Assembly (NCBI GenBank): GCA_963778645.1
Contig: CAVZVH010000001.1
Span: forward strand, 67,697 to 131,696
Origin: an uncultured Chloroflexia bacterium
GTDB lineage: Bacteria; Chloroflexota; Limnocylindria; Limnocylindrales; CSP1-4
Direction: 5' to 3'
Length of the DNA: 64,000 bases
Part shown: piece by piece, positions 7,879 to 30,562 of the stretch
Layout of the letters: every line of letters begins with the position of its first letter
How positions within the stretch are numbered: position 1 is the stretch's first letter
Notes under the pieces: generated by a model
What the model saw: the letters and a program-made list of their open reading frames with translations, nothing else
Databases searched by the model: none
What the model was told of the DNA's origin: nothing
Translations under genes and position numbers: made by a program

Positions 7879-8406
7879 ATGCCATCCGCCGACCACGGCG
7901 CGCCCCTCGTGCGCCCGGCCGACGTCGAGCGATGGCTCGCCGAGCTGGGCCTGGAGGCGCTCGAGCGGGCCGATCGCGACGGGATCGTCTCCTGGGACCT
8001 CGTGCTCGACGGCCGCCGGCGCTTCGATCTCCGCGTGACCGTCATCCTGGATCCCGCGCTCGCGATCATCGCGTGGGGCCACTACGCGCCACCGATCAGC
8101 GACATGTTCCGCAAGTCGTACCGGAAGCTGCTGCGCTGGAATGACGAGTTCCCGTTCGCGAAGTTCAGCATCGGCGAGGATGAGCGACCGCTCCTGGCCG
8201 TGGAGGTGCCGATCGCCGATGCCGACGCCGATCGGCTGGGCCTTGCGTTGGCCCGCATCCTGGGCATGGCCGACCAGCTCCTCGACGAGTCCAGGGACTG
8301 GCTCTTTCTGGGCGGACGGATCCCCGACCCGGGCGAGCGATCCTCGCGGAACGCCGACCTCCTGGCACGGTACGAGGCGCGCATGCCAGAGCTCCTGATC
8401 GGGTGA
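7879..8406 (+). CDS. YbjN domain-containing protein
   Basis: Size and pattern (YRKLLRWNDEFPFAKFSIGEDERPLLAVE) fit the YbjN chaperone-like family. TAGACT -10 at 7864-7869 lies 9 nt before the ATG. Confidence 0.6.
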   Translation: MPSADHGAPLVRPADVERWLAELGLEALERADRDGIVSWDLVLDGRRRFDLRVTVILDPALAIIAWGHYAPPISDMFRKSYRKLLRWNDEFPFAKFSIGEDERPLLAVEVPIADADADRLGLALARILGMADQLLDESRDWLFLGGRIPDPGERSSRNADLLARYEARMPELLIG

Positions 8407-10436
8407 GGAGCGTCCGCCGGACCGTCCCGGTCCTCCTCGCGCTCGTGGCCGCGATCGGCCTCCTGGCCGCGCCAGTCGTCGGTCCCGTTGCCGAGGTTCG
8501 GGCCGCCGCCCCCGACCTGACCATCGTCAGCGAGGCCAGGTACGACGTCCAGCCCTCGAAGCACCGGGTCCGGGTGACGCTCGCCCTGACGCTCACGAAC
8601 CGCCTCAAGGACACAGTGACCAGGCGCTACTACTTCGACAAGGCGTTCCTGGCCGTCCTGCCGGGCACGACGGGTCACGCGCTGAGCTGGGACGGCGCCG
8701 GGACACCGACCGTTGGAGCGACGAAGAGGACCGCCGAGTACACGATCCTCCAGCTCAACCTCCCGAGACGCCTGTACAGCCAGAGCACCGCCCGCTACAC
8801 GCTCCGCTTCGACATCGCCGACAACGGCGGCAAGGCGACCCGCGACGTCCGAATCGGCGATTCGCTCGTGTCCTTCCCGGTCTGGGCATACGCGACCGAC
8901 GACACGCCGGGCAGCTCGGCCACGGTGGTCTTCCCCGCCGGCTTCCAGGTCGAGGTCGAGGCCGGCTCCATCCCCGCCCCGACGACCGACTCGACCGGCC
9001 GGACGATCTTCCGGTCCGGCCGCCTGGACAAGCCGCTGACCTTCTTCGCGTTCCTCGTCGGCGACCGGCCGGGGGCGTATGCCACCCGCACGATCAGCCC
9101 GATCGTGCTCGGACGGCCGGTACCGTTGACGATCCGCTCGTGGCCCGACGACCCGGCCTGGGACAAGCGGGTCGGCGGCCTGGTCGAACGCGCCTTGCCG
9201 GTCCTCGGCGACCAGATCGGCTTGCCATGGCCGCGCGAGGACACGCTCGTCGTGCAGGAGGCCGTGAGCCGCTCGACCGGGGGATATGCCGGGCTCTTCG
9301 ACCCGGCGGCCGGACGGGTCGAGGTCGCCTACTACGCGAGCGATTTCGTCGTCCTGCACGAGGCGGCCCACGGCTGGTTCAACGGCGCGCTGCTCGCGGA
9401 TCGCTGGGCGAACGAGGCGTTCGCGTCGTACTACGGCCTCGAGGCCGCCGCCGTTCTCAAGGTCAAGGCCGTCGGCGACGAGCTGACCGACGCGTTGACG
9501 AAGGCCCGGATCCCGCTCAACGCCTGGGGTTCGGTCGGCCGTGAGACCACGGCCGCCGAGGACTACGCGTATGCCGCCAGCCTGTCGCTGGCACGCGCGG
9601 TCGCAGAGCGGGCCGGCGGGGACGGTCTCCGGGCGGTGTGGTCCGATGCAAGCGAGCGTGTCGGGGCCTACCAGCCGGCTGGTGGCGGTTCCACCGAGCG
9701 GGTGGACGGGCCGCCGGATTGGCGCGGCCTGCTGGACCTGCTGGAGACCAGGAGCGGCAGATCGTTCGACGACTTGTGGCGGACCTGGGTCGCCCGGACC
9801 GAGGACCTGCCGCTGCTCGATGCCCGCCTGGCGGCGCGAACGCGCTACGACGAGGTCGTCGCCCAGGCGACCGACTGGCGGTTGCCGATGCCGATCCGCG
9901 ACGCCCTCCGCGCCTGGCAGTTCGAGGACGCCACGGCCATGCTCGACCTGGCGAGCGGCGTGCTCGACCAGCGGGCCGCCGTCGAGGCGGCGGCATCGGT
10001 TGCCGGTCTCGAGCTACCGGGGGCGCTCCAGACCGCCTTCGAAGGCGACGACGGGTTCGACGACGCGATCGCCGAGGCCGATGCCGAACTCCAGACGATC
10101 GAGCGCTATCAGGCGGCCGTCGCGGCTCGACCGAACGGCGGCGACCTGTTCCTGAGCCTGGGTCTGTGGGACGAGGCCCCGGAAGCCGACCTGGTCGCCT
10201 CACGGGAGGCGTTCTCGCGGGGCGACCTGTCCGCGGCCGCGGCCGCCGCCGGTGAGGCCGAGGCCGCCTGGTCCGGGGCCACTGGCCTCGGGCGCAGTCG
10301 CGTCATCAGCCTGTTGGTACTCGCCGTCGCGGCGCTGATGGCCCTCGTCCTGATCGTTCTTTGGAATCGCGGCCGGCGCCGCCGTCGGATCCACCGGATG
10401 CACGCCCATCGGATCAAGGAGTCGGCCAAGCCATGA
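8403..10436 (+). CDS. Secreted, C-terminally membrane-anchored gluzincin (M1/MA-like) metallopeptidase
   Basis: N-terminal signal peptide; VLHEAAHGWF...WANEAFASY (HEXXH plus downstream Glu); C-terminal TM followed by an Arg-rich stop-transfer segment. Confidence 0.7.
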   Translation: MRSVRRTVPVLLALVAAIGLLAAPVVGPVAEVRAAAPDLTIVSEARYDVQPSKHRVRVTLALTLTNRLKDTVTRRYYFDKAFLAVLPGTTGHALSWDGAGTPTVGATKRTAEYTILQLNLPRRLYSQSTARYTLRFDIADNGGKATRDVRIGDSLVSFPVWAYATDDTPGSSATVVFPAGFQVEVEAGSIPAPTTDSTGRTIFRSGRLDKPLTFFAFLVGDRPGAYATRTISPIVLGRPVPLTIRSWPDDPAWDKRVGGLVERALPVLGDQIGLPWPREDTLVVQEAVSRSTGGYAGLFDPAAGRVEVAYYASDFVVLHEAAHGWFNGALLADRWANEAFASYYGLEAAAVLKVKAVGDELTDALTKARIPLNAWGSVGRETTAAEDYAYAASLSLARAVAERAGGDGLRAVWSDASERVGAYQPAGGGSTERVDGPPDWRGLLDLLETRSGRSFDDLWRTWVARTEDLPLLDARLAARTRYDEVVAQATDWRLPMPIRDALRAWQFEDATAMLDLASGVLDQRAAVEAAASVAGLELPGALQTAFEGDDGFDDAIAEADAELQTIERYQAAVAARPNGGDLFLSLGLWDEAPEADLVASREAFSRGDLSAAAAAAGEAEAAWSGATGLGRSRVISLLVLAVAALMALVLIVLWNRGRRRRRIHRMHAHRIKESAKP

Positions 10437-10569: not shown

Positions 10570-11598
10570 ATGGGCCTGCAGCGTGCACGACCGTCGCACG
10601 AGATCCTCTCCGGTGACTCAGCCGACGTCTACTTCGCCCGCGCCGAAACCATCCTGGAACGCGAAGGCCTCGACCCGGTCGTGACCATGGAGGTGTTCGC
10701 CCGCCAGCATGCCGTGCTCTGCGGCATCGGCGAAGCCCGGAACCTCCTGGGCCACGTCCTCGCGGGGGCGGATGCGGAGCAGACGAGACTCGAAGCCCTC
10801 AAGGACGGCGACGTCATCGAGCCCAAGGAGGTCGTTCTCCGGATCCGAGCGCGCTATCGCACGTTCGGGCTCTACGAAACCGCGATGCTCGGGATGCTCG
10901 CGCAATCGACTGGCTGGGCGACCGCGTCGCGCGAGTGCGTCGACGCCGCGGCCCCGGACCCGGTCATCAGCTTCGGGGCACGGCACATCCACCCGGACAT
11001 CACCGACGTGCTGGACTACGCCGCGATCGTCGGCGGGTGCGTCGGCGCGTCCACGCCCGCCGGTGCTCGTCTGGCCGGCCTGGCGCCGACCGGCACCATG
11101 CCCCATTCGCTCGTCTTGATCTTCGGCGATACCGTCGAGGCGGCCCTCGCGTTCGACCGGCACATCGGACCGGACGTGCCGCGGATCGTGCTCGTTGACA
11201 CCTTCAAGGACGAGGCGGAGGAAGCGTTGCGCGTCGCCCACGCCCTGGGCGAGCGGCTGTACGGCGTCCGCCTGGACACCCCGTCCGAGCGCGGTCGGGT
11301 CACGGCCGAGCTGGTCCACGAGGTCCGCGCGCGTCTTGACCAGGCCGGCTTCGACCACGTGAAGATCGTCATCTCGGGCGGGCTCAACCCGGATCGGATC
11401 ACCTACTTCAAGGAAGCCGGCGCGCCGGTCGATTCGTATGCGGTGGGCTCGTACATCAGCGGCGCGACCCCGATCGATTTCACCGGCGACATCAAGGAGA
11501 TCGACGGCCGTCCGATCGCGAAGCGCGGACGGATCCCGGGCCCGACGAAATCCCCGCGACTGCAGCAGGTCGATCTCGCGGCCTGGCGCGAGGACTGA
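10570..11598 (+). CDS. pncB: Nicotinate phosphoribosyltransferase (short type)
   Basis: DVYF, SFGARH, GTMPHS, LVDTF, VRLDT, ISGGL and YAVGSYI motifs of the NAPRTase B type. Confidence 0.85.
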   Translation: MGLQRARPSHEILSGDSADVYFARAETILEREGLDPVVTMEVFARQHAVLCGIGEARNLLGHVLAGADAEQTRLEALKDGDVIEPKEVVLRIRARYRTFGLYETAMLGMLAQSTGWATASRECVDAAAPDPVISFGARHIHPDITDVLDYAAIVGGCVGASTPAGARLAGLAPTGTMPHSLVLIFGDTVEAALAFDRHIGPDVPRIVLVDTFKDEAEEALRVAHALGERLYGVRLDTPSERGRVTAELVHEVRARLDQAGFDHVKIVISGGLNPDRITYFKEAGAPVDSYAVGSYISGATPIDFTGDIKEIDGRPIAKRGRIPGPTKSPRLQQVDLAAWRED

Positions 11599-16550: not shown

Positions 16551-17459
16551 CTAGACGCCCTCTGCGCCGGCCAGCGCCGCCCCGATCCCTCCGGCCAGCG
16601 GGCCGAGCTGCGCCAGCACGATCTCGATCCGCTCCGGCGGGAGCATCCGCGCATGCTCCATGACGTTGGCTCGCAGCGGCTCCAGGATGATGTTGCCAGC
16701 CGCGGCCATGCCGCCCCCGACGACCACCCGATCGGGGGCAAGGACGTTGACGATGTTGGCGATCGCGATCCCCAGGGCGCGGGTCGCCTGGTCCACGGCC
16801 GCGATGCAGCGCTCGTCGCCGGCCACAGCGCCCGCAAAGACTTCCTCCACCGTGGCCTTACCGGCCGCCGTCGTGATGGCCTTGGCCTGGGCCAGGGCTT
16901 CGGTGCAGCCACGATTGCCGCAGCCGCACATCGGCCCATCCTCGAGCACCGTCTGATGGCCGATCTCCCCAGCGGTGCCGGTGCCCAGGTGGAGCATGCC
17001 GTCGATGATCAGCCCACCGCCGATGCCCGTACCGAGCGTCACGAGCGCCATCGTCCGGGCGCCGCGGCCGGCGCCCATCCGCGACTCCGCGAGCGTGTGG
17101 GCTCGCGCGTCGTTGATGAACACGACCGGTCGGCCGAGGCCGTCCTCGAGGCGTGCCTTGAAGGGATAGCCGGTCCATGGTCCCGGGAAGTTGGGAAAGA
17201 GGCGGATCACGCCAGACTCCCGATCGAACAGGCCGGGTACGCCGATGCCGATCGTGGCGATGGGGCCGTGGGCCGCCACCGCCGCCAGCCCGGCCTCGAC
17301 CATGACCGCGACGACCCCATCGGGCCCGCGCTCGGCGTAGGTCGGCACGGTGTCGCGGGCCAGCAACACGGGCTCCTCGCCGCGGTCCGACCGCTCCAGG
17401 ACGGCCACCTTCAGGTTCGTCCCGCCGAGGTCCAGGCCCAGGTGCCGGCTCGCAGTCAC
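16551..17459 (-). CDS. ROK family sugar kinase
   Basis: GLDLGGTN, INDARA, LGTGIGGG, GEIGH and CGCGNRGCTE Zn motif; no HTH. Confidence 0.92.
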   Translation of the reverse strand: MTASRHLGLDLGGTNLKVAVLERSDRGEEPVLLARDTVPTYAERGPDGVVAVMVEAGLAAVAAHGPIATIGIGVPGLFDRESGVIRLFPNFPGPWTGYPFKARLEDGLGRPVVFINDARAHTLAESRMGAGRGARTMALVTLGTGIGGGLIIDGMLHLGTGTAGEIGHQTVLEDGPMCGCGNRGCTEALAQAKAITTAAGKATVEEVFAGAVAGDERCIAAVDQATRALGIAIANIVNVLAPDRVVVGGGMAAAGNIILEPLRANVMEHARMLPPERIEIVLAQLGPLAGGIGAALAGAEGV

Positions 17460-18193
17460 GACATCTCCGCGTGGTCGCCGCGCTGGAGCACGGCCTCGAA
17501 CTCGTAGCGTTCGGCGGCATAGAGGGTCTCGGTGTGTTCGATGGGGATGCCGTCCTGGTCGTCGATGGTCCGTCGCTCGCTGAGGACGACCCCGTCGGGA
17601 TCGAGGCCCAGCAGGCGTCGTTCGATGTCGGTCGCGAGCCGCGCGGAGACCCGTGCCTGGGCTCGGGTCGGGATGCGCCCGAGTCGCTCGAAGGCGTCGT
17701 GGAGCGAACCGCCGGCCAGGTCGTCATCGAGGATGCCGGCGCACGTCGGCGGGGCGACGACGCGCTCGATGGCCATGGGCAGGTCGTCGGCGAGGCGGAG
17801 TCGTTCGACGACGATGGCCCGACTGCCCACCGGCAGGTGGAGCGCGGCGCGGTCCTCGGGGCTCGGTTCGATCCAGCCCGTGTGGAGCATCCGCGACGAG
17901 GCCCGTCGACCCCGCCGACGCATGCTCTCGGTGAACGAGAGCGGCGATCCGAGGAGTCGCGCCACCACGCGCGGAGCCGTGAACGTGCCCTCGCCTCGAC
18001 GCCGCACGAGCAACCGCTCGTTGGCCAACAGCTGGACCGCCTGTCGGACCGTCATCCGGCTCACACCGAAGCGCTCGCAGAGCTCGGCTTCGGACGGCAG
18101 CCGATCGCCCGGTCGCGACGCCGCGACGAGGCGACGAAGGTAGTCGGCGATCTCCAGGTATCGCGGGGTCGTGGCGGCGGTCATCGTGTCCAT
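17456..18193 (-). CDS. GntR family transcriptional regulator, HutC/UTRA subfamily
   Basis: RLPSEAELCERFGVSRMTVRQA wHTH, RRGEGTF and a C-terminal UTRA domain. Confidence 0.93.
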   Translation of the reverse strand: MDTMTAATTPRYLEIADYLRRLVAASRPGDRLPSEAELCERFGVSRMTVRQAVQLLANERLLVRRRGEGTFTAPRVVARLLGSPLSFTESMRRRGRRASSRMLHTGWIEPSPEDRAALHLPVGSRAIVVERLRLADDLPMAIERVVAPPTCAGILDDDLAGGSLHDAFERLGRIPTRAQARVSARLATDIERRLLGLDPDGVVLSERRTIDDQDGIPIEHTETLYAAERYEFEAVLQRGDHAEMS

Positions 18194-18290: not shown

Positions 18291-19088
18291 TTGCCCATCG
18301 CCGGCGCGTGGCTCTCCGAGGCCCGAGCAGTCCTCGATCGGATCGAAGCCACCCAGATGCCCGCCATCGCGGAGACCGTGAGCCTCTGCGCACGAGCCAT
18401 CGGCGACGGTGGCCTCGTCCACCTCTTCGGGACAGGCCACTCGCGGATCCCGCTCGAGGAGATGTTCCCGCGGTACGGGTCCTACCCCGGATTCCATCCG
18501 ATCGCCGAGCTCTCGATGACGTTCCACACCCAGGTCGTCGGTGCGAACGGCCAGCGTCAGGCGATGTTCATCGAGCGAACCGAGGGCCTCGCCGAAGTGA
18601 TCCTGGCCAACTTCCAGTTCGGGCCGAGCGACGTGATGATGGTCTTCTCGGCGTCCGGGCTGACCGCCGTCCCGATCGAGATGGCGATGGGCGCGCGAGC
18701 CCGCGGCCTGGTGGTCGTGGCCGTCACCTCGGTCGCCCAGTCGATGGCCGGTGTGCCGGAGCACCCGACCGGCAGCCGCCTGCTGGACCAAGCGGACATC
18801 GTCATCGACCTGTGCACGCCGGCCGGCGACGCGCTTGTGCGCCTGGACGGCCTGGACACGCCGATCGGCCCGGGCTCCACGGTCGCCAACGCCGCGATCG
18901 TCAACGAGATCAAGGTGGGGACCGCGGCGATCCTCCTGCAGCGGGGAGCGCTGCCGCCGGTCCTCACGAGCGCCGCCGTGGTCGGACCGGAGCGCTCGAT
19001 CGAACTGTTCGAGGCGGCGTACCGGGAACACGCTCGCCGGGTCGCTCTGGCGCTCGCCGGGGCCGTGGCGCCAGCTGACGAGGCCTAG
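18291..19088 (+). CDS. SIS domain sugar isomerase-like protein (UPF0309 type)
   Basis: HLFGTGHS, FSASG, VAVTS, IDLCTPAGDA and GPGSTV match the SIS fold; TTG start preceded by GGAGG. Confidence 0.8.
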   Translation: MPIAGAWLSEARAVLDRIEATQMPAIAETVSLCARAIGDGGLVHLFGTGHSRIPLEEMFPRYGSYPGFHPIAELSMTFHTQVVGANGQRQAMFIERTEGLAEVILANFQFGPSDVMMVFSASGLTAVPIEMAMGARARGLVVVAVTSVAQSMAGVPEHPTGSRLLDQADIVIDLCTPAGDALVRLDGLDTPIGPGSTVANAAIVNEIKVGTAAILLQRGALPPVLTSAAVVGPERSIELFEAAYREHARRVALALAGAVAPADEA

Positions 19089-19163: not shown

Positions 19164-20948
19164 GTGGCCGTGACAGAGGAGATCCTCGGCCAGTTCCTTG
19201 GAGACGACACGTTTCCGGTCGACTGGGACTCGGAGGTCGAGAAGGACTTCTTCTGGGTGTACGACGACCTGCACATCCCGCACCCGGTCAGCCCGATGTT
19301 CTTCGACATCGGTGGTTGGTGGCTCAGCTGCGACCACATGTTCCGCCGCTTCGGGACACCGTTCGCCGTCGACTGGCTGGCCAAGAACGTCAATGGCTAC
19401 GTGTACACGACCGCCATCCCGGCCGATCCGGACCTCCGGATCGAGGGAACCGAGTACAGCTCGCGCTACAGCGCGCGGGTGCCGCGCGACGCCACCTTCG
19501 CCGCCACGATGGGGGCGTATCTCGACGTGGTCCTGCCCGTCTACGGCCGGGACTTCGCCGACTGGTGGCGGGACCGCCTGCGGCCGGAGATGGAGCGCAA
19601 TTTCGCCTTCCTGGAGGCGCGCCTCGACGCCGCCGACGGCATGAGCCTGGCCGACGTGGCCTGCCTGCTCGAGGACGCTATCGACATCCACGATCGTCAC
19701 TGGAAGATCCACTGGATGCTGAACTTCGCCCAGCTGTCCGCGACGCTCCACCTGCGCGCCGTCATGGAGAAGATCCGCGGCACGGTCGACGAGGCGCTGC
19801 TGGGCCGCCTCCAGAACTCGGCATCGGACCGCAACTGGGACTCGATCGAGGCGCTGTGGCGGATGAAGAACGAGGTTCGCGATGATCACGAGCTGCGGGC
19901 GGCGTTCGCATCCGATGCCGCCGCCGAGATCGCCGCGTCGCTCCATGCGAGCGAGCGGGGCCGGCGGTTCATCGCCGAGGCGATCGGGCCGTATCAGCGC
20001 GAATTCGGATGGCATGCGGTCTGGAGCCACGAGTTCATCTTCCCGACGGTCCGCGAGCAGATGGAGCCGGTCCTCGAGCTCATCCGCGGGTACCTGGCCA
20101 GCGACTACGACTTTCCGAGCGCGATCGAGGCGATGCGGATCGACATCGCGGCCGCGTCCGAGGAGATCCTCGACGGGCTGACCGGCGATGCGCTCGAGGA
20201 GATGCGCGCGGCCAACGCCGTCAATCGCAGGATGGCGCCGCTGACGCCCGACCACCACTTCTACATCGACCAGGGCGCCAACGCCCACGTCCGCCTCGTC
20301 CTGCTCGAGGTCGGCCGCAAGCTCGTGGATGCCGGGCGCCTCGATGCGCCCGACGACGTGATGTTCCTTCGCTACAACGAGCTTCGGGGCCTGATCGGCA
20401 GCGCCGAATCGATCGACGCGCGGGCATTCGTCGCCAGCCGCCGCCTCGAGCGCCAGGCCGCCGCTCGCCGACATCCGCGCGACTGGGTCGGCACGGTCAC
20501 CCCATCGCAGCTCGCCTTCCCATACCTCGTCAATTGGGGGTACCCGGATCGCTTCCATCAGACGCAATCGGAGGATGTGCGCCTCATCACGGGGATCGGT
20601 GCGTCCCCGGGCATCGTCGAAGGCATCGCCCGGGTCGTGCGGACCGTCGACGAGTTCGACGAGGTCCGCGACGGCGACATCCTCGTGTGCCAGATGACCA
20701 ACCCGGCCTGGGTGGTCCTGTTCACCAAGATCGCCGGCCTGGTGACCGACACCGGGGGGACGACCTCGCATCCCGCCGTCCTCGCCCGTGAGTTCGGGAT
20801 CCCGGCGGTCATCGGCACATCCGTGGCGACCCAGCGGATCGCCACCGGCGACCGGTTGAGGATCGATGGCGCGGCAGGGCGGGTGGAGGTCATCGGCGAG
20901 GCGCCGGCCGGATCGACGGTCGTGTCGGCGACGGCGATCGGTCGCTGA
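19164..20948 (+). CDS. PEP-utilizing enzyme: substrate-binding domain plus phospho-His swivel, no ATP-grasp (phenylphosphate synthase alpha-like)
   Basis: C-terminal GIGASPGIVEGIARV...TDTGGTTSHPAVLAREFGIPAV phosphohistidine signature. N-terminal EKDFFWVYDDLHIPHP, VNGYVY and DHHFYID resemble PpsA-type proteins (recalled, not searched). Confidence 0.8.
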   Translation: MAVTEEILGQFLGDDTFPVDWDSEVEKDFFWVYDDLHIPHPVSPMFFDIGGWWLSCDHMFRRFGTPFAVDWLAKNVNGYVYTTAIPADPDLRIEGTEYSSRYSARVPRDATFAATMGAYLDVVLPVYGRDFADWWRDRLRPEMERNFAFLEARLDAADGMSLADVACLLEDAIDIHDRHWKIHWMLNFAQLSATLHLRAVMEKIRGTVDEALLGRLQNSASDRNWDSIEALWRMKNEVRDDHELRAAFASDAAAEIAASLHASERGRRFIAEAIGPYQREFGWHAVWSHEFIFPTVREQMEPVLELIRGYLASDYDFPSAIEAMRIDIAAASEEILDGLTGDALEEMRAANAVNRRMAPLTPDHHFYIDQGANAHVRLVLLEVGRKLVDAGRLDAPDDVMFLRYNELRGLIGSAESIDARAFVASRRLERQAAARRHPRDWVGTVTPSQLAFPYLVNWGYPDRFHQTQSEDVRLITGIGASPGIVEGIARVVRTVDEFDEVRDGDILVCQMTNPAWVVLFTKIAGLVTDTGGTTSHPAVLAREFGIPAVIGTSVATQRIATGDRLRIDGAAGRVEVIGEAPAGSTVVSATAIGR

Positions 20949-21006
20949 TATGCGCAGCCGCATCGTCCTGGTCGGCGTCGTCGATCAAGGGCCCTAGACC
21001 CGGCCG

Positions 21007-21879
21007 ATGCGAGCCTTCGCCTACGAGCGTCCGACCCGCCTTGAGGACGCGCTCGAACTGCTCGCCGAGCACGGCCCGGAGGCGAGCCTGCTTGCCGGTG
21101 GGACCGACCTGATCATCCGGCTTCGCGACGGGACGATCCGGCCGAGCGTGGTGGTCGATCTCAAGCGCGTCGCGGAGCTCGACGCGGAGATCGGCGACGC
21201 CGACGGCCATCTGCGGATCGGGGCTCGGACCGTGATGACCGACATCGCCGCGGACGAGCGCATCCGGCGGGACTACCCGGCCCTGGCCGAGGCGGCGTCG
21301 GTCGTGGGATCTGCCCAGATCCGGAACCGCGCGACGCTCGCCGGCAACATCTGCAATGCCTCCCCCGCGGCCGACACGGTTCCCGCGCTCCTGGTCTACG
21401 GCGCCCGGGTCGTCGCGACCGGCCCGGCGGGGACGCGGACGATCCCGATCGACGACGTCTTCGTCCGATCCGGTGTGACCACGCTCGGCCGCCGTGAGCT
21501 CCTTGTGGCCATCGAGCTGCCCGCCCCGACCGACCCACGGGGATCCGTCCATGTCCGACGTACCCGGCGTCGCGGTCACGACCTCGCCTCGGTCACGTTG
21601 ACCTGCGCCGTCCTGGCCGATGGGGTGACCACCTTGGCCTATGGCAGCCTCGGGCCCCGGCCGTTGCTGGTGGTCGACGAGACGGGTCTGCTCGCCGATC
21701 CAGCGGCTCCGGATCTCGCCAAGATGGCGCGGCTCGAAACGCTTTTCGTCGACGCCAGCCCGTCCGCGCGATCGATGCGGGCGAGCCCCGACTACCGCCT
21801 CGCGATGCTCCACGTCCTCGGGCTCCGGGCGGTCGGCATCGCCATCGAGCGACTCGCCCAGGCGACGGCCCCGCGATGA
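21007..21879 (+). CDS. Molybdenum hydroxylase FAD-binding subunit (CoxM/XdhB-like)
   Basis: LLAGGTDL, IRNRATLAGNICNASPAAD and RTRRRGHDLA. Confidence 0.92.
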   Translation: MRAFAYERPTRLEDALELLAEHGPEASLLAGGTDLIIRLRDGTIRPSVVVDLKRVAELDAEIGDADGHLRIGARTVMTDIAADERIRRDYPALAEAASVVGSAQIRNRATLAGNICNASPAADTVPALLVYGARVVATGPAGTRTIPIDDVFVRSGVTTLGRRELLVAIELPAPTDPRGSVHVRRTRRRGHDLASVTLTCAVLADGVTTLAYGSLGPRPLLVVDETGLLADPAAPDLAKMARLETLFVDASPSARSMRASPDYRLAMLHVLGLRAVGIAIERLAQATAPR

Positions 21880-22352
21880 CGACCACTCGCAGGATCGAAA
21901 CGACCGTGAACGGACAACGTCGCGCGATCGACGTCATCGCGCATCACACGCTTCTCGAGGTCCTCCGTGACGACCTCGGCCTGACCGGGACGAAGGAGTG
22001 CTGCCTGGTCGGCGAGTGCGGCGCCTGTACCGTGCTCGTCGATGGGGTCAGCGTGGACTCGTGCCTCATGCTCGCGGTCGAGGCCGACGGCGCGTCGGTC
22101 ACCACGGTCGAGGGTCTCGCCGGCGAGGACGGCCTGCACCCGCTTCAGCAGGCATTCCTCCGGACGGGTGCCGTCCAGTGCGGATTCTGCATCCCCGGTC
22201 AGCTCGTCTCGGCCCACGCCATGCTCGCGCTGATCCCACACCCGACCCGATCCGAGGTCGAGGAGGGCCTCGCCGGCAACCTGTGCCGATGCGCCGGGTA
22301 CGAGCAGATCATCGAAGCCGTCATGTCGGCGGCGGGAGACGAGGAGTCGTGA
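21876..22352 (+). CDS. Molybdenum hydroxylase 2Fe-2S subunit (CoxS-like)
   Basis: GTKECCLVGECGACTV, QCGFCIPG and GNLCRCAGY. Confidence 0.95.
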   Translation: MTTTRRIETTVNGQRRAIDVIAHHTLLEVLRDDLGLTGTKECCLVGECGACTVLVDGVSVDSCLMLAVEADGASVTTVEGLAGEDGLHPLQQAFLRTGAVQCGFCIPGQLVSAHAMLALIPHPTRSEVEEGLAGNLCRCAGYEQIIEAVMSAAGDEES

Positions 22353-24604
22353 GCGACCGAGTGGTCGGCTCGTCCCCGGCTCGCGTGGGCGGGCTCGATC
22401 GGGTCACGGGCCGGCAGGCGTATGTCGCCGATCTGCGACTCGAGGGGGCGCTCCAGGCCAAGCTGGTGAGCCTCGATGTCGCGCGGGCCACGGTCACGCG
22501 GATCGACACGCGTGCCGCGCTCGAGGTCCCGGGCGTCCGCCTGATCCTCACGGCGGCCGACCTGCCCCAGCCGGTCCCGCGCTTCGGTCCGCAGTGGCAG
22601 GACCGGCCGGTCCTCGCGGCCGGCGAGACCCACTACCACGGTGAGCCGATCGCGGCGATCGCAGCGGACACGGTCGACGCGGCGGAGGAGGCGGCTCGTC
22701 GGGTCCGGATCGAGTACGAGGAACTACCGGCGGTCGTCACGATCGCGGCGGCCCTCGCCCCGGACGCGCCGCTCGTCCAGGACCCCGCACTGCGACCGGG
22801 CGATCCGCTGGCGACCACGAACGTCCTTCGCGAGCACCACTACGGCTGGGGCGATGTGGAGGCCGCATCGGCCGACGTCGTGGTCGAGGGGACCTACCGA
22901 TTCCCGATGGTGACCCAGTTCGCGATCGAGCCACACGCCTTCATGGCCGCTCCCGACGGCGACGGGATCGCCATCTGGAGCTCGATCCAGCACCCCAACT
23001 GGCTGCAGCGGGTCATCGCCGGCGTGCTCCATCTGCCCCTCGCCAAGGTCCGGGTCTTCGCACCCGACCCGGGTGGCGGGTTCGGCGGCAAGCAGCACGC
23101 CAAGTACGAGCCGCTCGTCGCGTTCCTGGCCCTGCGGACGGGACGCCCGGTCCGCCTTGTCCTGACGCTCGAGGAGACCTTCCAGGCCGTCCGCCGGGGC
23201 GCATCGGAGATCCGCGTTCGCTCCGGTTTCCGGACGGACGGCAGCCTCGCGTTCCGCGACGTCGTCGCCGACTACCTCATCGGCGCGTACGCCGACATCG
23301 CCGACCGCACCGTCGGCAAGGGCAGCTATACCTCGAATGGGCCGTATCGCACGCCCGCCGTGCGGATCGTGGCGCGCAGCGTCCTCTCCCACACGACGCC
23401 TTCCACCGCCTTCCGTGGCTTCGGGAATCCCCAACAGATCTGGGCGGTCGAATTGAACATGGACGAGGCGGCGCTGGCGCTCGGCATCGATCCGCTCGAT
23501 CTGCGCCTGCGCAACCTGGCCCGCCGCGGGGAAGACTTCATCCCCGGCGATACCCCGGTGGACGGCGATTGGGCGGCGACCGTCGTTCGGGCGGCCGAGC
23601 TGATCGGGTGGGGGAGCCCGTCGGCTCCTGGTCGCGGTCGTGGCCTGGCGGTCGGCCTGAAGTCCGGGCCGACGACGGGGCTGTCGTATTCGACCGTCCG
23701 CCTGCTCGCGGACGGAAGCGTGATCGTGCACGCTGGCACGTCGGACATGGGCCAGGGCGCGCGGACGATCTTCGCCCAGATCGCCGCCGACGAGCTCGGT
23801 GCCCCGATCGACTGGGTGACGATCGTGATGGGCGACACGGCCGTGGTCCCGTATGACCAGCAGACGTCGGCGAGTCGGTCGTCCGTCCTCATGGGCAATT
23901 CGGTCCTTGATGCCTGCCGCCAGGTCCAGGGGAAGATCCAGGCGATGGCCGCCCGGCTGGAGTCGGTCGATGCGTCCGAGATCGTCGTGGATCGCGGCGA
24001 GGTCCGGATCGGGGAGCGGGTGATGCCGATCCGGGACGTCCTGATCCGCGGCCTCGGTCGGCTGGGCGGGGAGGTCATCGGGATCGGGGAGATGCGCAAG
24101 GAGGCCGACCCGGACCATCCGCTCGGCGGGACCGCCGCCTTCTTCGAGTTCAATTGCACCGCCGTCGAGGTGGAGGTCGATCGGGCGACGGGCGACATCG
24201 TCATCGTCCGGCACGTCACCGTCTCGGACGTCGGCAAGGCCCTCAACCCGACCCAGGTCCGCGGCCAGGACGAGGGCGCCGCCGTCATGGGGCTCGGGCA
24301 CACGCTGATGGAGCACTACATCTACGACGACGACGGCCGGATCCGCAACCTCGGCGCGATCGACTACCGGATCCCGACGAGCATGGACCTGCCGTTGCGC
24401 ATGGAGAGCGACATCATCGAGAACGAGGACGGCCCCGGCCCGTACGGCTCGAAAGGGATGAGCGAGGGCGCGCTCCTGTGCGTCGCTCCGGCCGTGGCCG
24501 CGGCCGTCCGCGATGCCACGGGGGTGACGATCCGCGAGTTGCCCCTGACCCCCGAGCGCGTCTGGCGAGCGCTCCGCGAGTCGGGCGCGGGTGACGACGC
24601 ATGA
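22349..24604 (+). CDS. Molybdenum hydroxylase molybdopterin-binding large subunit (xanthine dehydrogenase family)
   Basis: DRVTG...Y, GGGFGGK, AFRGFGNPQ, DMGQG, SASRS and YGSKGMSEG. Start GTG 22349. Confidence 0.92.
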   Translation: MSDRVVGSSPARVGGLDRVTGRQAYVADLRLEGALQAKLVSLDVARATVTRIDTRAALEVPGVRLILTAADLPQPVPRFGPQWQDRPVLAAGETHYHGEPIAAIAADTVDAAEEAARRVRIEYEELPAVVTIAAALAPDAPLVQDPALRPGDPLATTNVLREHHYGWGDVEAASADVVVEGTYRFPMVTQFAIEPHAFMAAPDGDGIAIWSSIQHPNWLQRVIAGVLHLPLAKVRVFAPDPGGGFGGKQHAKYEPLVAFLALRTGRPVRLVLTLEETFQAVRRGASEIRVRSGFRTDGSLAFRDVVADYLIGAYADIADRTVGKGSYTSNGPYRTPAVRIVARSVLSHTTPSTAFRGFGNPQQIWAVELNMDEAALALGIDPLDLRLRNLARRGEDFIPGDTPVDGDWAATVVRAAELIGWGSPSAPGRGRGLAVGLKSGPTTGLSYSTVRLLADGSVIVHAGTSDMGQGARTIFAQIAADELGAPIDWVTIVMGDTAVVPYDQQTSASRSSVLMGNSVLDACRQVQGKIQAMAARLESVDASEIVVDRGEVRIGERVMPIRDVLIRGLGRLGGEVIGIGEMRKEADPDHPLGGTAAFFEFNCTAVEVEVDRATGDIVIVRHVTVSDVGKALNPTQVRGQDEGAAVMGLGHTLMEHYIYDDDGRIRNLGAIDYRIPTSMDLPLRMESDIIENEDGPGPYGSKGMSEGALLCVAPAVAAAVRDATGVTIRELPLTPERVWRALRESGAGDDA

Positions 24605-26731
24605 CGCTGACCCTCGCGCTCGGCGCGCCCTGGTCCGGCACGCTCGACGAGGCCAGGGCGTTGGTCGGCGGCAAGGCGGCGAATCTCGGGGTCATGGCGC
24701 GCGACCTCGGCCTGCCGGTTCCGCCCGGGTTCGTCATCACGACCGACGCCTGCCGGGCTGTGCTGGCCGGCGGCTGGCCGGCCCACCTCGACGAAGAGAT
24801 CCGGGACCGGATGGCCGGCCTCGAGGCGGCCGTCGGTCGCCGGTTCGGGGATGCGCGGGATCCGTTGCTGGTCAGCGTCCGATCCGGAGCCCCAGTGTCG
24901 ATGCCCGGGATGATGGACACGATCCTCGACCTGGGCCTCAACGACGCGACGACCCGTGGCCTCGCGCAGGCCTCCGGCAGCGAGGTCTTCGCTCGCAGCT
25001 GTCGCCAGCGATTCGAGGCGAGTTTCCGTTCGATCGTCGGGGTGGCCGAGGTGCCGGCCGATCCCTGGGCTCAGCTCCGCCTGGCGATCGAGGCGGTCTT
25101 CCGGTCCTGGAACAGCGATCGCGCCCGAGCGTACCGCCGAGGAGGAGGGCATCCCGGACGACCTAGGGACGGCGGTCACGGTCCAGGCGATGGTCTTCGG
25201 CAACCGTGGCCGGAGGTCGGGCACCGGCGTCGTCTTCACGAGGAATCCCGCGACCGGTGAGCCGACCCTCTACGGCGACGTCATGTTCGACGCCCAGGGC
25301 GAGGACGTGGTCGCCGGGACGCATCCGACCGATCCGATCACGGTCCTCGACGAGCGGCTGCCGGAGGTCGCCGCCGACCTGCGGCGATACGCGGACCAGC
25401 TCGAGCGCCACTTCACCGATCTCTGCGACATCGAGTTCACGATCGAACAGGGCCGACTGTGGCTGCTCCAGGTCCGGGTCGGCAAACGGAGCCCGCAGGC
25501 GGCCCTGCGGATCGCGGTCGACATGGCCAGCGACGACACGTTCCCGCTGACCCGGGCGCACGCGGTCGAGCGTGTGGCGTCGCTGCTCGCCGATCCGCCG
25601 TCGGTCGCGACGACCCGCGCCAGCTCCGTCCTGCCGCTCACGACCGGATTGCCGGCCTCGCCCGGGACCGCGAGCGGGCCGATCGTCACGAGCCCCGAGG
25701 CGGCGCAGGAAGCGGCCGAGGGTGGACAGGCGGCGATCCTCGTGCGAGCCGAGACCTCGCCCGACGACGTTCACGGGATGGCTCGCGCGGCTGGGATCCT
25801 GACCTCGCGGGGCGGCCTCGCCAGCCACGCGGCGGTCGTCGCCCGCGGGTGGGGGATCCCGGCCGTCGTCGGGGCGGCCGCGATGACCGTGGGTGACGGC
25901 CGGGTCGTCTTTGGCGGACGGAGCCTCGAGGCCGGAACGGTCATCACGATCGACGGGAGCTCCGGCGAGGTCTTCGAGGGCACGATCCCCGGCACGACCG
26001 AGGTCGTGCCCGAGGCGCGGACGCTGCTCGGCTGGGCGCACGAGCTCGGGATCCTCGTCGCCGACGAAGGGAGCGTCGCCGACCCGTCGAGCCTGTCCGG
26101 TCCGGTGAGCAAGATCACGCCCGATGGCTGCCTCCAGGCCCTGGACATCAAGGGCTTGGCGCCGATCGAGGGCGTCGCGGATGCGGTGCGTTCGACCCCG
26201 GAAACCGTTGGCCCGATCCTCGACCAGCTGGTCGTCGACGGCCTGGTGGAGACCGTCACGGGCGCCTATCGACTCACCGAGCTCGGCACGGACCGGGCGA
26301 GGGGCCTGCGCCGCACCGAACAGGACGCGTGGGGGATCGCCGAGGCCATCGTGGCACTCGACGCGTTCCTGGGGCTCGACCATGCGATGAAGGAGATCGT
26401 GACCGCCTGGCAGCTCCGTGACGATGCGGACGGCCAAGTCATCAACGATCACTCGGACTCGGTCTATGACCAGAGGGTGCTGGACCACCTCGCCGCGATG
26501 CACGCCGATGCGGCGGCCTGGTTCACACGACCGGAGCAGGGCTGTCCGCGACTGGCGGCCTATCGGATCCGCCTCGGCCGGGCGCTCGAGATGGCCCGCG
26601 CCGGCGACCAGCGGTTCGTGGCTTCACCGCGCGTCGACAGCTACCACGGGATCTGGTTCGAGCTCCACGAGGACCTGATCCGTCTCGCCGGGCGGAGCCG
26701 AGAGGAAGAGGTGGCCGCCGGCCGGGCATAG
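24601..26731 (+). CDS. Truncated pyruvate phosphate dikinase-like protein (ATP-grasp plus His swivel) fused to a wHTH/helical C-terminal domain; apparent frameshift near 25140
   Basis: GGKAANL, VSVRSGAPVSMPGMMDTIL, QAMVFGN, QGEDVVAG, DIEFTIE and GGLASHAAVVARGWG. The pyruvate-binding barrel is absent, replaced by about 200 aa ending DSYHGIWFELHEDL. Confidence 0.85.
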
Positions 26732-29668: not shown

Positions 29669-30562
29669 TTAGCGGCCCTTCGCGTACCCCGTCGCGGTCA
29701 GCTTGTCCCAGAGGGTCCCGGCATTGTTGTTCTGGATGTGATCCATCATGTAGCCCTGCCCGACGTCGACCGGCCCGAAGGCGTCGTCGAACCGGACGCG
29801 CGCGATCGTCTCCTCGCGCGTCCAGCCCTTCGCGACCGCGTCTGCGACGGCGGCCTTCCACTGATGCAGGACGGACCGCTGCGTATCGACGTAGGCGATC
29901 GTCTGGACGGGACCGTGGCCCGGGATCAGGTGGTCGACGTCGAGCTGGCGGATCCGCTCGAGCGCATCCAGCCATTGGTCGACGTTCGAGGTCATCAGCC
30001 ACGTCTGGCACTCGGCGAAGATCGTGTCGCCGGTAAAGACGGCCCGCTCCTCGGGCACGTGCACCGCGAGCTGGCCGGGTGTGTGCCCCGGCGTGTGGAG
30101 CAGGTGAAAGGTGTGATCGCCGACGCGCAGCGTCAGGTCGCCCGTGAAGACCACCGTCCCCTTGTTCGGGTCCTGGTAGTAGACCTCGCGATCGGGAATC
30201 AGCGGCGCCGCCTCGGGGTCGTCGGTCGGGATCGCCTCGAGGGCATACGCGAACGGATCGAGGGCCGCATTCGGGTCCATGAAGTTGTCGTACAGCCCCT
30301 GGTGATTGACGACCGGCACGCCCTTGTACCAGTAGTTCCCGAAGATGTGATCGACGTGGTGCTCGGTGTTGATGAGGTAGCGGATCGGGCCGTGCGACTC
30401 CGCCTCCGCCCGCATCGCGACCGCCCGTGTCGGCAGCTGGGGCGTGTCGATGGCCACGACCCCATCGGCGGTCACGACGAAGCTCGGGTTGCACCCGCGG
30501 AGCTTGGTCGTCGTGTAGATGTTCGGCGTGACGCGTTCGAGGTCCAGGGTGGCAACCGCCAT
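29669..30562 (-). CDS. Metallo-beta-lactamase fold hydrolase (cyclase-like)
   Basis: IDTP, TEHHVDHIFGN, TPGHT, FTGDT and IPGHG. Confidence 0.88.
   Translation of the reverse strand: MAVATLDLERVTPNIYTTTKLRGCNPSFVVTADGVVAIDTPQLPTRAVAMRAEAESHGPIRYLINTEHHVDHIFGNYWYKGVPVVNHQGLYDNFMDPNAALDPFAYALEAIPTDDPEAAPLIPDREVYYQDPNKGTVVFTGDLTLRVGDHTFHLLHTPGHTPGQLAVHVPEERAVFTGDTIFAECQTWLMTSNVDQWLDALERIRQLDVDHLIPGHGPVQTIAYVDTQRSVLHQWKAAVADAVAKGWTREETIARVRFDDAFGPVDVGQGYMMDHIQNNNAGTLWDKLTATGYAKGR

Follow-up and report, generated by a model that had tools for sequence, protein, structure and literature searches.

What does a pyruvate, phosphate dikinase (PPDK) do once its phosphoenolpyruvate (PEP)/pyruvate barrel has given way to another module? 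The question is raised by a gene at 24601–26731 (+ strand) in a 64,000-nt stretch of DNA from an uncultured Chloroflexia bacterium (assembly GCA_963778645.1, contig CAVZVH010000001.1; hereafter the window, to which positions refer), where an acidic winged helix and a helical bundle, together homologous to the Mycobacterium tuberculosis protein Rv1126c, occupy the place of the barrel. Here we describe the domain make-up of this fusion, its homology to Rv1126c and to the M. tuberculosis kinase VadK (Rv1127c), its fused and split forms and its conserved neighbourhood. On balance, and without pressing the point, we lean towards reading the fusion protein as that part of a multi-component small-molecule dikinase which uses ATP to phosphorylate itself; its autophosphorylation would follow by homology from experiments on VadK. 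The fusion is widespread, with soil bacteria commonly carrying it, and the copy in the window is one of many.

A barrel-less kinase fused to an Rv1126c-like module

Once one surplus base is skipped, the fusion gene encodes a 709-aa protein whose ATG at 24601 shares an ATGA overlap with the stop codon of the molybdenum (Mo)-subunit gene upstream. As assembled, the region holds two open reading frames (ORFs), 24601–25260 (219 aa) and 24956–26731 (591 aa), with codons 1–179 in frame 1 (24601–25137) and all later codons, which start at 25139 and run up to the stop codon at 26729–26731, in frame 2. A first-pass annotation had drawn the fusion from motifs of the PPDK N-terminus and swivel, IDGSSGEVFEG, a winged helix-turn-helix (wHTH), NDHSD and the C-terminus, all of which were recovered at 24601–26731 on the + strand. 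The PPDK N-terminus is of the textbook type, and residues 1–179 (24601–25137, + strand) form the start of an ATP-grasp, PPDK-type nucleotide-binding domain (Pfam PPDK_N 1e-23; NF004531 positions 17–189; colinear with VadK residues 6–190). Residues 180–461 (25139–25984, + strand) comprise the rest of this domain and the phospho-His swivel domain, as delimited by Pfam PEP-utilizers, PPDK chains in the PDB and the VadK alignment. The swivel motif reads RGGLASHAAVVARG, with IDGSSGEVFEG downstream, and the catalytic His409 (CAC, 25826–25828) lies in GGLASH. PPDK alignments end in residues 462–506 (25985–26119, + strand), a post-swivel linker remnant, PEARTLLGWAHELGILV, followed by an acidic low-complexity linker, ADEGSVADPSSLSGPVSKIT.

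PPDK_N (1e-23 and 7e-20) and PEP-utilizers (1.8e-23) were the sole Pfam matches of the protein, and the PEP-utilizers_C barrel was not found by Pfam. Like canonical PPDK, the fusion has nucleotide-binding and swivel domains that align with solved structures (PDB 1DIK, 1KBL, 5JVJ; E ~1e-72, with individual chains from 1e-71 to 4e-73) from the start to about chain residue 530, and its alignment to the canonical-PPDK model TIGR01828 likewise ends at position 526 of 865, with a read-through score of 516.5 bits, below the cut-off of 843.45. Unlike canonical PPDK, the fusion lacks the entire TIM barrel and the regulatory Thr, and a separate canonical PPDK is encoded on contig C20 of the same genome. 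In canonical PPDK, that Thr is the target of PPDK regulatory protein. Its place, two residues before the catalytic His, is taken here by Ala407 (25820–25822), giving LASH; in the motif table the Thr is present in all seven canonical PPDKs (as TSH), in none of the 19 members of the window clade and not in M. tuberculosis VadK, and its loss spans the whole window clade and is a separate event in VadK. The missing barrel and the score below cut-off rule out canonical PPDK identity (EC 2.7.9.1). The claim in the first-pass annotation that the regulatory Thr is missing is thus borne out, and its prediction that the protein would not make PEP is consistent with the absence of the barrel.

The closest characterised counterpart is found in M. 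tuberculosis. We located rv1127c by exact match to a published qRT-PCR primer (PMC13400623), reaching the genus via a 'Mycobacterium sp.' locus; the primer had no match in 401 Nocardia-family genomes, a sample without M. tuberculosis, and a single exact match at position 1,250,849 of a 4,411,532-bp contig. The gene there reads GGAASHAAVVSREL, in agreement with the mutagenesis primer of the same study (PMC13400623), and the 201-aa gene overlapping its stop codon is Rv1126c by position, with DSYHTVWFELHEELI at its end, the motif that the first-pass annotation gave for Rv1126c. VadK also lacks the barrel, in line with the truncation given there for it. The kinase part of the fusion is 46% identical to VadK over residues 3–462 (BLASTP, E = 3e-102), with His409 paired with the VadK catalytic His, and the read-through protein passes the VadK-type short-PPDK model NF004531 (PRK05878; 515.7 bits, cut-off 456, positions 17–477), for which each of the two assembled pieces scores below cut-off (211 and 288 bits) and VadK itself, the archetype of the family, scores 912.6 bits.

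Homology to the second mycobacterial protein extends over the C-terminal module end to end: module residues 16–215 match Rv1126c residues 6–200 of 201 at 32% identity (BLASTP, E = 4e-27), the module family profile matches Rv1126c with a probability of 100% (hhalign, E = 1.7e-52), and the WQ, N-x-H-x-D, SYH and WFELHE motifs are shared. This substantiates the 'Rosetta-stone' link between the two mycobacterial proteins that had been proposed for the fusion. Like the M. tuberculosis pair, the window protein combines ATP-grasp and swivel His without a barrel, has Ala for the regulatory Thr and places kinase before module, the order of the two M. tuberculosis genes; unlike that pair, it is one polypeptide rather than two genes, and its neighbours are a gene for a HpeH-like protein (described below) and a Mo hydroxylase rather than prpR and prpDC. 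VadK, formerly PpdK, was described in 2026 as a non-canonical histidine kinase with a link to virulence and as a possible drug target; it autophosphorylates on its swivel His in an ATP- and Mg-dependent manner (PMC13400623). VadK was more soluble when co-expressed with Rv1126c, with which it co-purifies, and separating the two took a wash with 2 M NaCl (Pascoe et al. 2026, EMBO Rep, PMC13400623); neither fused forms nor a role of Rv1126c other than as a solubility aid feature in that study.

The last 215 aa of the fusion matched no Pfam or NCBIfam family. A search among 50%-identity cluster representatives returned 1369 relatives at E <= 1e-3 and 806 at E <= 1e-10, either stand-alone proteins of about 205 aa or proteins of about 715–785 aa with the module at the C-terminus, and the module is present in at least 589 species genomes. 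Its motifs in the window are LQALDIKGLAPIEG, NDHSD and the C-terminal DSYHGIWFELHEDLIRLAG. AlphaFold2 models the module with high confidence (predicted local distance difference test, pLDDT, 96, falling to 66 over the first 10 residues; predicted template modelling score, pTM, 0.91) as a winged helix and, after it, a helical bundle that includes a β-hairpin. The former spans module residues 13–66 (26120–26281, + strand), with secondary structure H-H-H-E-E and support from Foldseek and the family profile; the latter, defined by alignment invariants, the model and Rv1126c homology, runs to the stop codon (26282–26731, + strand). Across 40 diverse members 13 positions are invariant (F, WQ, N-x-H-x-D, R, G, S-x-H, W-x-E, R), none of them in the first half of the module; the winged helix is the least and the bundle the most conserved part. 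Bundle invariants in the window protein include W603, Q604, N615, H617, D619, R657, S680, H682, W685, E687 and R700, and H689 is nearly invariant; the three His residues are conserved in Rv1126c too.

The winged helix invites the explanation that the fusion is a one-component transcription factor, its DNA-binding domain resting on operon DNA and switched by His409 phosphorylation or by the ATP level. Foldseek with the whole module matched only the wHTH, to IdeR/DtxR, MntR, AspA and MarR (about 77 residues, root-mean-square deviation ~2 Å, probability 1.0, E 0.02–0.03), the profile search against PDB sequences likewise returned only an IdeR-like wHTH (E 1e-3), and RefSeq annotates stand-alone homologues as 'MarR family transcriptional regulator'. 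The module lacks the basic recognition helix and wing of a DNA-contacting domain, charge being a proxy for binding: net charge is -6 for the wHTH (family mean -1.5), -2 for the recognition helix (mean -1.65) and -11 for the module (mean -8.6). DNA binding is unlikely because the winged helix is acidic, and acidity across the family points to docking instead. Moreover, the wHTH is the part of the module that evolution has least preserved, loss of VadK in M. tuberculosis leaves transcription of methylcitrate genes unchanged, and a divergent GntR regulator already stands at the operon. We therefore set aside the DNA-binding output suggested in the first-pass annotation, and consider a transcription factor very improbable indeed.

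The conserved bundle is harder to account for as a mere dock. A third catalytic or acceptor domain, akin to the phosphotransferase system (PTS), would pass phosphate from His409 to H617, H682 or H689, or to a metal-assisted site, and from there to water, protein or substrate. The invariant positions kept in Rv1126c, which include two His, one nearly invariant His and conserved N, D, E, Q and R residues, are in keeping with such a domain, as are the location of the module, which stands where PPDK has its second active site, the barrel, and the predicted fold, which is confident, distinct and without a solved relative (bundle alone, pLDDT 96.3). Against solved structures the bundle gave no credible Foldseek match (best E 0.3, TM 0.47), and neither profile nor Foldseek searches revealed likeness in fold or motif to HPr, HPt, a phosphotransfer site or a metal site. 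The module is also found fused to an AMP-binding enzyme, a poor fit with a dedicated acceptor of His phosphate. A phospho-acceptor His in the module is possible, and the acceptor-domain explanation as a whole strikes us as decidedly unlikely.

A surplus base in the ATP-grasp domain

Is the gene that encodes this protein intact? The surplus base lies inside CGCCGAGGAGGAGGGCA (25133–25149, + strand), in a stretch, TACCGCCGAGGAGGAGGGCATC / CGCCGAGGAGGAGGGC, that counts 22 bases in the window and 21 in relatives; 25138 was taken as the skipped base, and sequence cannot tell which base is the surplus one. The frame-2 continuation reads EEGIPDDLGTAVTVQAMVFGN, one base further along. All 16 relatives compared (12 relatives and four same-genus orthologues) are in frame at this site, with the consensus Y-R-x-(K/R)-E-G-I, and tblastn showed a 1-base gap between the halves in the window alone. 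In alignments of the read-through protein with each of the relatives and with M. tuberculosis VadK, the joint is free of gaps. Since the break sits in the ATP-grasp domain and not where kinase and Rv1126c-like module meet, the fusion as such is in one frame.

If the extra base were real, the window would hold a pseudogene copy, its ATP-grasp domain cut after 179 residues, in a decaying cluster. The frame break in the assembled sequence agrees with this, as does the loss of a conserved 296-aa cluster gene, deleted here and missing from the assembly. Against it, no second lesion is present in the 709 codons, identity to relatives is about 80%, and both halves retain their GC content at third codon positions (GC3). 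A housekeeping gene shows a lesion of this kind too: the canonical full-length PPDK of this genome (contig C20:68130–70830, outside the window) is also split by one surplus base (AAHGAD|QDTDLG). Among same-genus metagenome-assembled genomes (MAGs), PPDK genes are broken in assemblies of few long contigs and intact in those of hundreds of contigs.

A GC3-based heuristic for switches of coding frame, which recovered both known cases (the fusion gene and the housekeeping PPDK), flagged 149 sites in the 4.02 Mb of this genome, or 37 per Mb; the corresponding rates were 26.6 per Mb for loci of long-read MAGs from the same type of project and 6.0 per Mb for loci of short-read MAGs or isolates. The apparent rate is thus about six times the short-read and isolate background; the majority of the flagged sites appear to be artefacts, and the assembly appears rich in indel errors. 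Because 16 relatives are in frame and the background of breaks is raised about sixfold, an assembly error is likelier than a dead gene: we consider the former quite probable, and a real lesion unlikely, if by no means negligible. A programmed +1 frameshift at the GGAGG-rich site was also considered and rejected, none of the 16 relatives being shifted and the arrangement of a slippery codon plus stop being absent.

Similar damage is seen elsewhere: in long-read 'uncultured Chloroflexia' MAG loci (L008, L027, L070, L071, L077) the genes for CoxL, CoxS, PPDK and the module are fragmented across frames. The 'stand-alone' 250-aa gene calls starting MPEARTLL in such MAGs are probably artefacts of these breaks.

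Fused and split forms across lineages

How general is the fusion? In the survey of fused and split architectures that the first-pass annotation had proposed, kinase and module occur in one frame at 71 of 82 relatives' loci, cultured Nocardia species among them. Split forms occur as adjacent or overlapping genes (L006, L007), and a Diaphorobacter plasmid carries, in this order, genes for a PEP-utilizing enzyme, the Rv1126c-like protein and a truncated PPDK. A sample of 81 Mycobacteriaceae genomes yielded loci in which the module gene precedes PPDK, loci with a fused gene and loci with other genes between the two, and the M. tuberculosis gene arrangement was absent from it; most loci in this family are adjacent pairs, many with the module gene just 5' of PPDK, and a few are separated by several kb (L089, L130).

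In one Mycobacterium sp. locus (L089/L090, 4432–9373) a GntR/FCD regulator and an acyl-CoA dehydrogenase lie between truncated PPDK and module, surrounded by genes for acyl-CoA carboxylase, acyl-CoA dehydrogenase and enoyl-CoA hydratase, an acyl-CoA setting that recalls the link of M. tuberculosis VadK to the methylcitrate cycle. The module also has other fusion partners. On R. opacus B4 plasmid pROB02 (L172, 1522–3903) it forms the C-terminal end of a 793-aa 'PEP-utilizing enzyme' whose swivel is N-terminal, and on Rhodococcus sp. LW-XY12 plasmid pLW3 (L140, 7426–9597) that of a 723-aa AMP-binding, acyl-CoA-synthetase-like protein, the gene for which stands directly 5' of a truncated PPDK. 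Because fused and split loci recur, and because the module is found in these other swivel and AMP-binding fusions, it belongs with swivel kinases.

Weak split matches (E ~1e-13) in nine Mycobacteriaceae genomes were rejected as Rv1126c; they represent a more distant paralogous family, with no PPDK neighbour in the five neighbourhoods inspected. Proteins of this family, about 200 aa long (L133–L137; G010, G064, G042, G076, G057), match both ends of the profile and lack the central WQ…NDH. RefSeq names for the proteins of the fusion family are 'pyruvate, phosphate dikinase', 'MarR family transcriptional regulator' (for the stand-alone module) and 'hypothetical protein', the first two of which are probably wrong.

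A maximum-likelihood tree of the kinase part resolved two deep clades of truncated forms. One (19 members, support 100/99) includes the window protein and draws on Chloroflexota, Actinomycetota and Myxococcota; the other (99/96) includes M. tuberculosis VadK, the Nocardia fusions and Diaphorobacter. A single origin of all truncated forms is not rejected (approximately unbiased test, p = 0.247) in this tree, which contains seven canonical sequences and no outgroup.

Operon partners and a candidate dikinase mechanism

What, then, might the fusion phosphorylate? It is the last gene of an operon that runs from a SIS-domain protein through a HpeH/PpsA-like swivel protein to the M, S and L subunits of a Mo hydroxylase, with 4-nt overlaps joining CoxM, CoxS, CoxL and the fusion gene, and the operon is translationally coupled. 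The swivel protein (594 aa; 19164–20948, + strand), which is HpeH/PpsA/CreH-like, consists of a rifampin phosphotransferase/PigC-like substrate-binding part and a C-terminal swivel (GGTTSH, His536; Pfam PEP-utilizers 3.4e-25), matches the NCBIfam models PRK08296.1-5 (1.6e-50), RedH (1.2e-45, positions 509–878) and RIF_Ptrans_rph (8e-33, positions 680–863), and has no ATP-grasp domain; its orthologue in locus L006 carries PF27448 Rph_4th. The three-subunit Mo hydroxylase (21007–24604, + strand) is of the xanthine-dehydrogenase/CoxMSL family, with FAD (21007–21879), 2Fe-2S (21876–22352) and Mo (22349–24604) subunits recognised by Pfam FAD_binding_5, Fer2_2, and Ald_Xan_dh_C with MoCoBD_1/2; its best NCBIfam scores, for XdhA (453 bits) and the 4-hydroxybenzoyl-CoA reductase alpha subunit (417 bits), are both below cut-offs. 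This neighbourhood is conserved: at loci of at least 15 kb, a Mo hydroxylase stands beside the fusion in 39 of 58, a HpeH-like gene in 32 of 58, an undercount because this gene often lies past the fetched flank, and a metallo-beta-lactamase (MBL)-fold hydrolase in 33 of 58. An operon that unites the fusion with a HpeH/PpsA-like swivel protein and a Mo hydroxylase suggests a small-molecule dikinase rather than a two-protein relay.

Several characterised systems offer a frame for this reading. HpeHI of Rhodococcus, CreHI of Corynebacterium and the phenylphosphate synthase PpsAB(C) of Thauera are split dikinases that phosphorylate a phenolic hydroxyl, the ATP-grasp protein serving a swivel-plus-substrate protein (PMC12167813). 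As in these, the 594-aa neighbour in the window combines a rifampin-binding-like substrate domain with a swivel His in the setting of a catabolic gene cluster; unlike in these, where the ATP-grasp component has neither a swivel of its own nor an Rv1126c-like module, the ATP-grasp protein of the window is of the PPDK type, with its own catalytic His and an extra module of about 200 aa, giving three parts and two histidines. The window system may thus work like the HpeHI, CreHI and PpsAB dikinases without being a plain member of the group, whose defining reaction is the ATP-dependent phosphorylation of a phenolic or other hydroxyl substrate with release of AMP and Pi. Rifampin phosphotransferase (RPH) and PigC/RedH, too, phosphorylate small molecules with an ATP-grasp, a substrate domain and a swivel His, but in a single chain without an Rv1126c-like module, whereas in the window these functional parts are spread over two proteins and joined by the module.

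A closer parallel in gene content is the 3hpd cluster of Ensifer adhaerens HP1 (HpdA1–A4 with orf9 and orf10), which has the same triad of a xanthine-dehydrogenase-family Mo hydroxylase, a PPDK-like gene and a PEP-utilizer gene. HpdA converts 3-hydroxypyridine only together with orf9 ('PPDK') and orf10 ('PEP-utilizing mobile subunit'), and knock-out of either abolishes growth on 3-hydroxypyridine, a role that was left open (bioRxiv 10.1101/2020.01.08.898148). The two clusters differ in that HpdA has a fourth, SRPBCC subunit, none being seen in the window operon, and maleamate-pathway genes, in contrast to 3hpd, were not found among the window genes scanned.

Under the dikinase reading, ATP would phosphorylate His409, and the module, in the former position of the barrel, would dock the partner or aid transfer; phosphate would then move to or through the HpeH-like protein, with its His536 and rifampin-binding-like substrate pocket, and would end on a hydroxyl of a compound made or consumed by the neighbouring Mo hydroxylase. 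The ATP-driven, PTS-like phosphorelay put forward in the first-pass annotation is plausible in this outline, with the amendment that the likely acceptor is the neighbouring swivel protein and not the module.

The same proteins could also be read as a regulatory kinase of the kind described for M. tuberculosis, which would sense ATP, phosphorylate itself and tune a neighbouring enzyme, the Mo hydroxylase or the HpeH-like protein, through binding to it, with the module as target adaptor and no small molecule phosphorylated. Beyond its autophosphorylation, VadK pulls down PrpC and PrpD, and its loss raises methylcitrate-cycle flux without transcriptional change of the methylcitrate genes (PMC13400623); the window protein passes the VadK-type model, and its acidic module resembles a protein-binding surface. 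This explanation fits less well with the coupled linkage to a HpeH-like protein with a substrate pocket, which has the look of the split small-molecule dikinases (PMC12167813), with the placement of the window clade apart from that of VadK, and with the requirement for both Ensifer genes in the chemical conversion itself. We judge it unlikely, and continue to prefer a small-molecule dikinase.

Several points weigh against that preference. Biochemistry of this kinase type so far comes from VadK, which has been shown as a regulator that binds methylcitrate-cycle enzymes (PMC13400623). M. tuberculosis VadK has no adjacent HpeH-like gene or Mo hydroxylase, and it is separated from the window protein by the depth of their two clades, with the seven canonical PPDKs between them. 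The ATP-grasp protein of the known split dikinases has no swivel (PMC12167813) and the window system has two swivel histidines, so that the phosphate route given above is a guess. Invariant His, Asp and Glu residues hint that the bundle does more than dock a partner passively. Finally, in 38 of 82 relatives coxM is preceded by the 296-aa gene, which neither this cluster nor the rest of the assembly contains; the cluster may be in decay here, and the frameshift may be real.

Taken together, a broader scheme can be offered tentatively, as possible but doubtful: the module would be a third-domain docking or transfer station that replaced the barrel, making VadK-type kinases complete three-part machines, which together with the HpeH-like protein would form an ATP-driven His-to-His-to-substrate phosphorelay needed by such Mo hydroxylases acting on hydroxylated (hetero)aromatics; M. 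tuberculosis VadK/Rv1126c would be a split and re-purposed descendant.

The surroundings of the operon add further components. The 296-aa protein, of no Pfam family and 65–80% identical among the relatives that encode it directly 5' of coxM (e.g. L013:3123–4007), may belong to the hydroxylase/kinase system as an additional component; in the window its place is a 58-nt gap (20949–21006). A metallo-beta-lactamase-fold hydrolase (29669–30562, - strand; Pfam Lactamase_B 2.5e-21) is present at 42 of 82 relatives' loci, and a phosphoesterase role for it is a guess. The divergent GntR/UTRA regulator (17456–18193, - strand) and the SIS-domain protein that opens the operon (18291–19088, + strand) are local additions, common to only 2–3 of 82 relatives. 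Since the SIS, DeoC aldolase, GntR/UTRA, quinolinate phosphoribosyltransferase-like, dihydrodipicolinate synthase-like and aldehyde dehydrogenase neighbours are not conserved with the cluster, the substrate cannot be inferred from them. Elsewhere in the window, an ORF of 677 aa (8403–10436), which has a strong coding signal and is unmatched in Pfam, is followed by a quinolinate/nicotinate phosphoribosyltransferase-like gene (10570–11598).

M. tuberculosis encodes a second swivel-domain protein (G630 C1:2292004–2292564, minus strand), remote from vadK, that matches residues 376–581 of the HpeH-like protein of the window (E = 6e-22). As judged from this match, it could be a candidate partner of VadK/Rv1126c.

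By itself the window copy adds little, being one of many and frame-broken in the assembly, and the fused type as such is common; what is new is the link between VadK/Rv1126c, HpeH-like proteins and Mo hydroxylases, which is unpublished. Natural fusions in hundreds of species, and their recurrence with a HpeH-like protein, mark Rv1126c as a working part of the kinase. The HpeH-like protein and the Mo hydroxylase provide concrete candidate partners for VadK/Rv1126c-type kinases, and the Mo-hydroxylase link offers an explanation for the dependence of the Ensifer 3-hydroxypyridine hydroxylase on its 'PPDK' and 'PEP-utilizing' genes.

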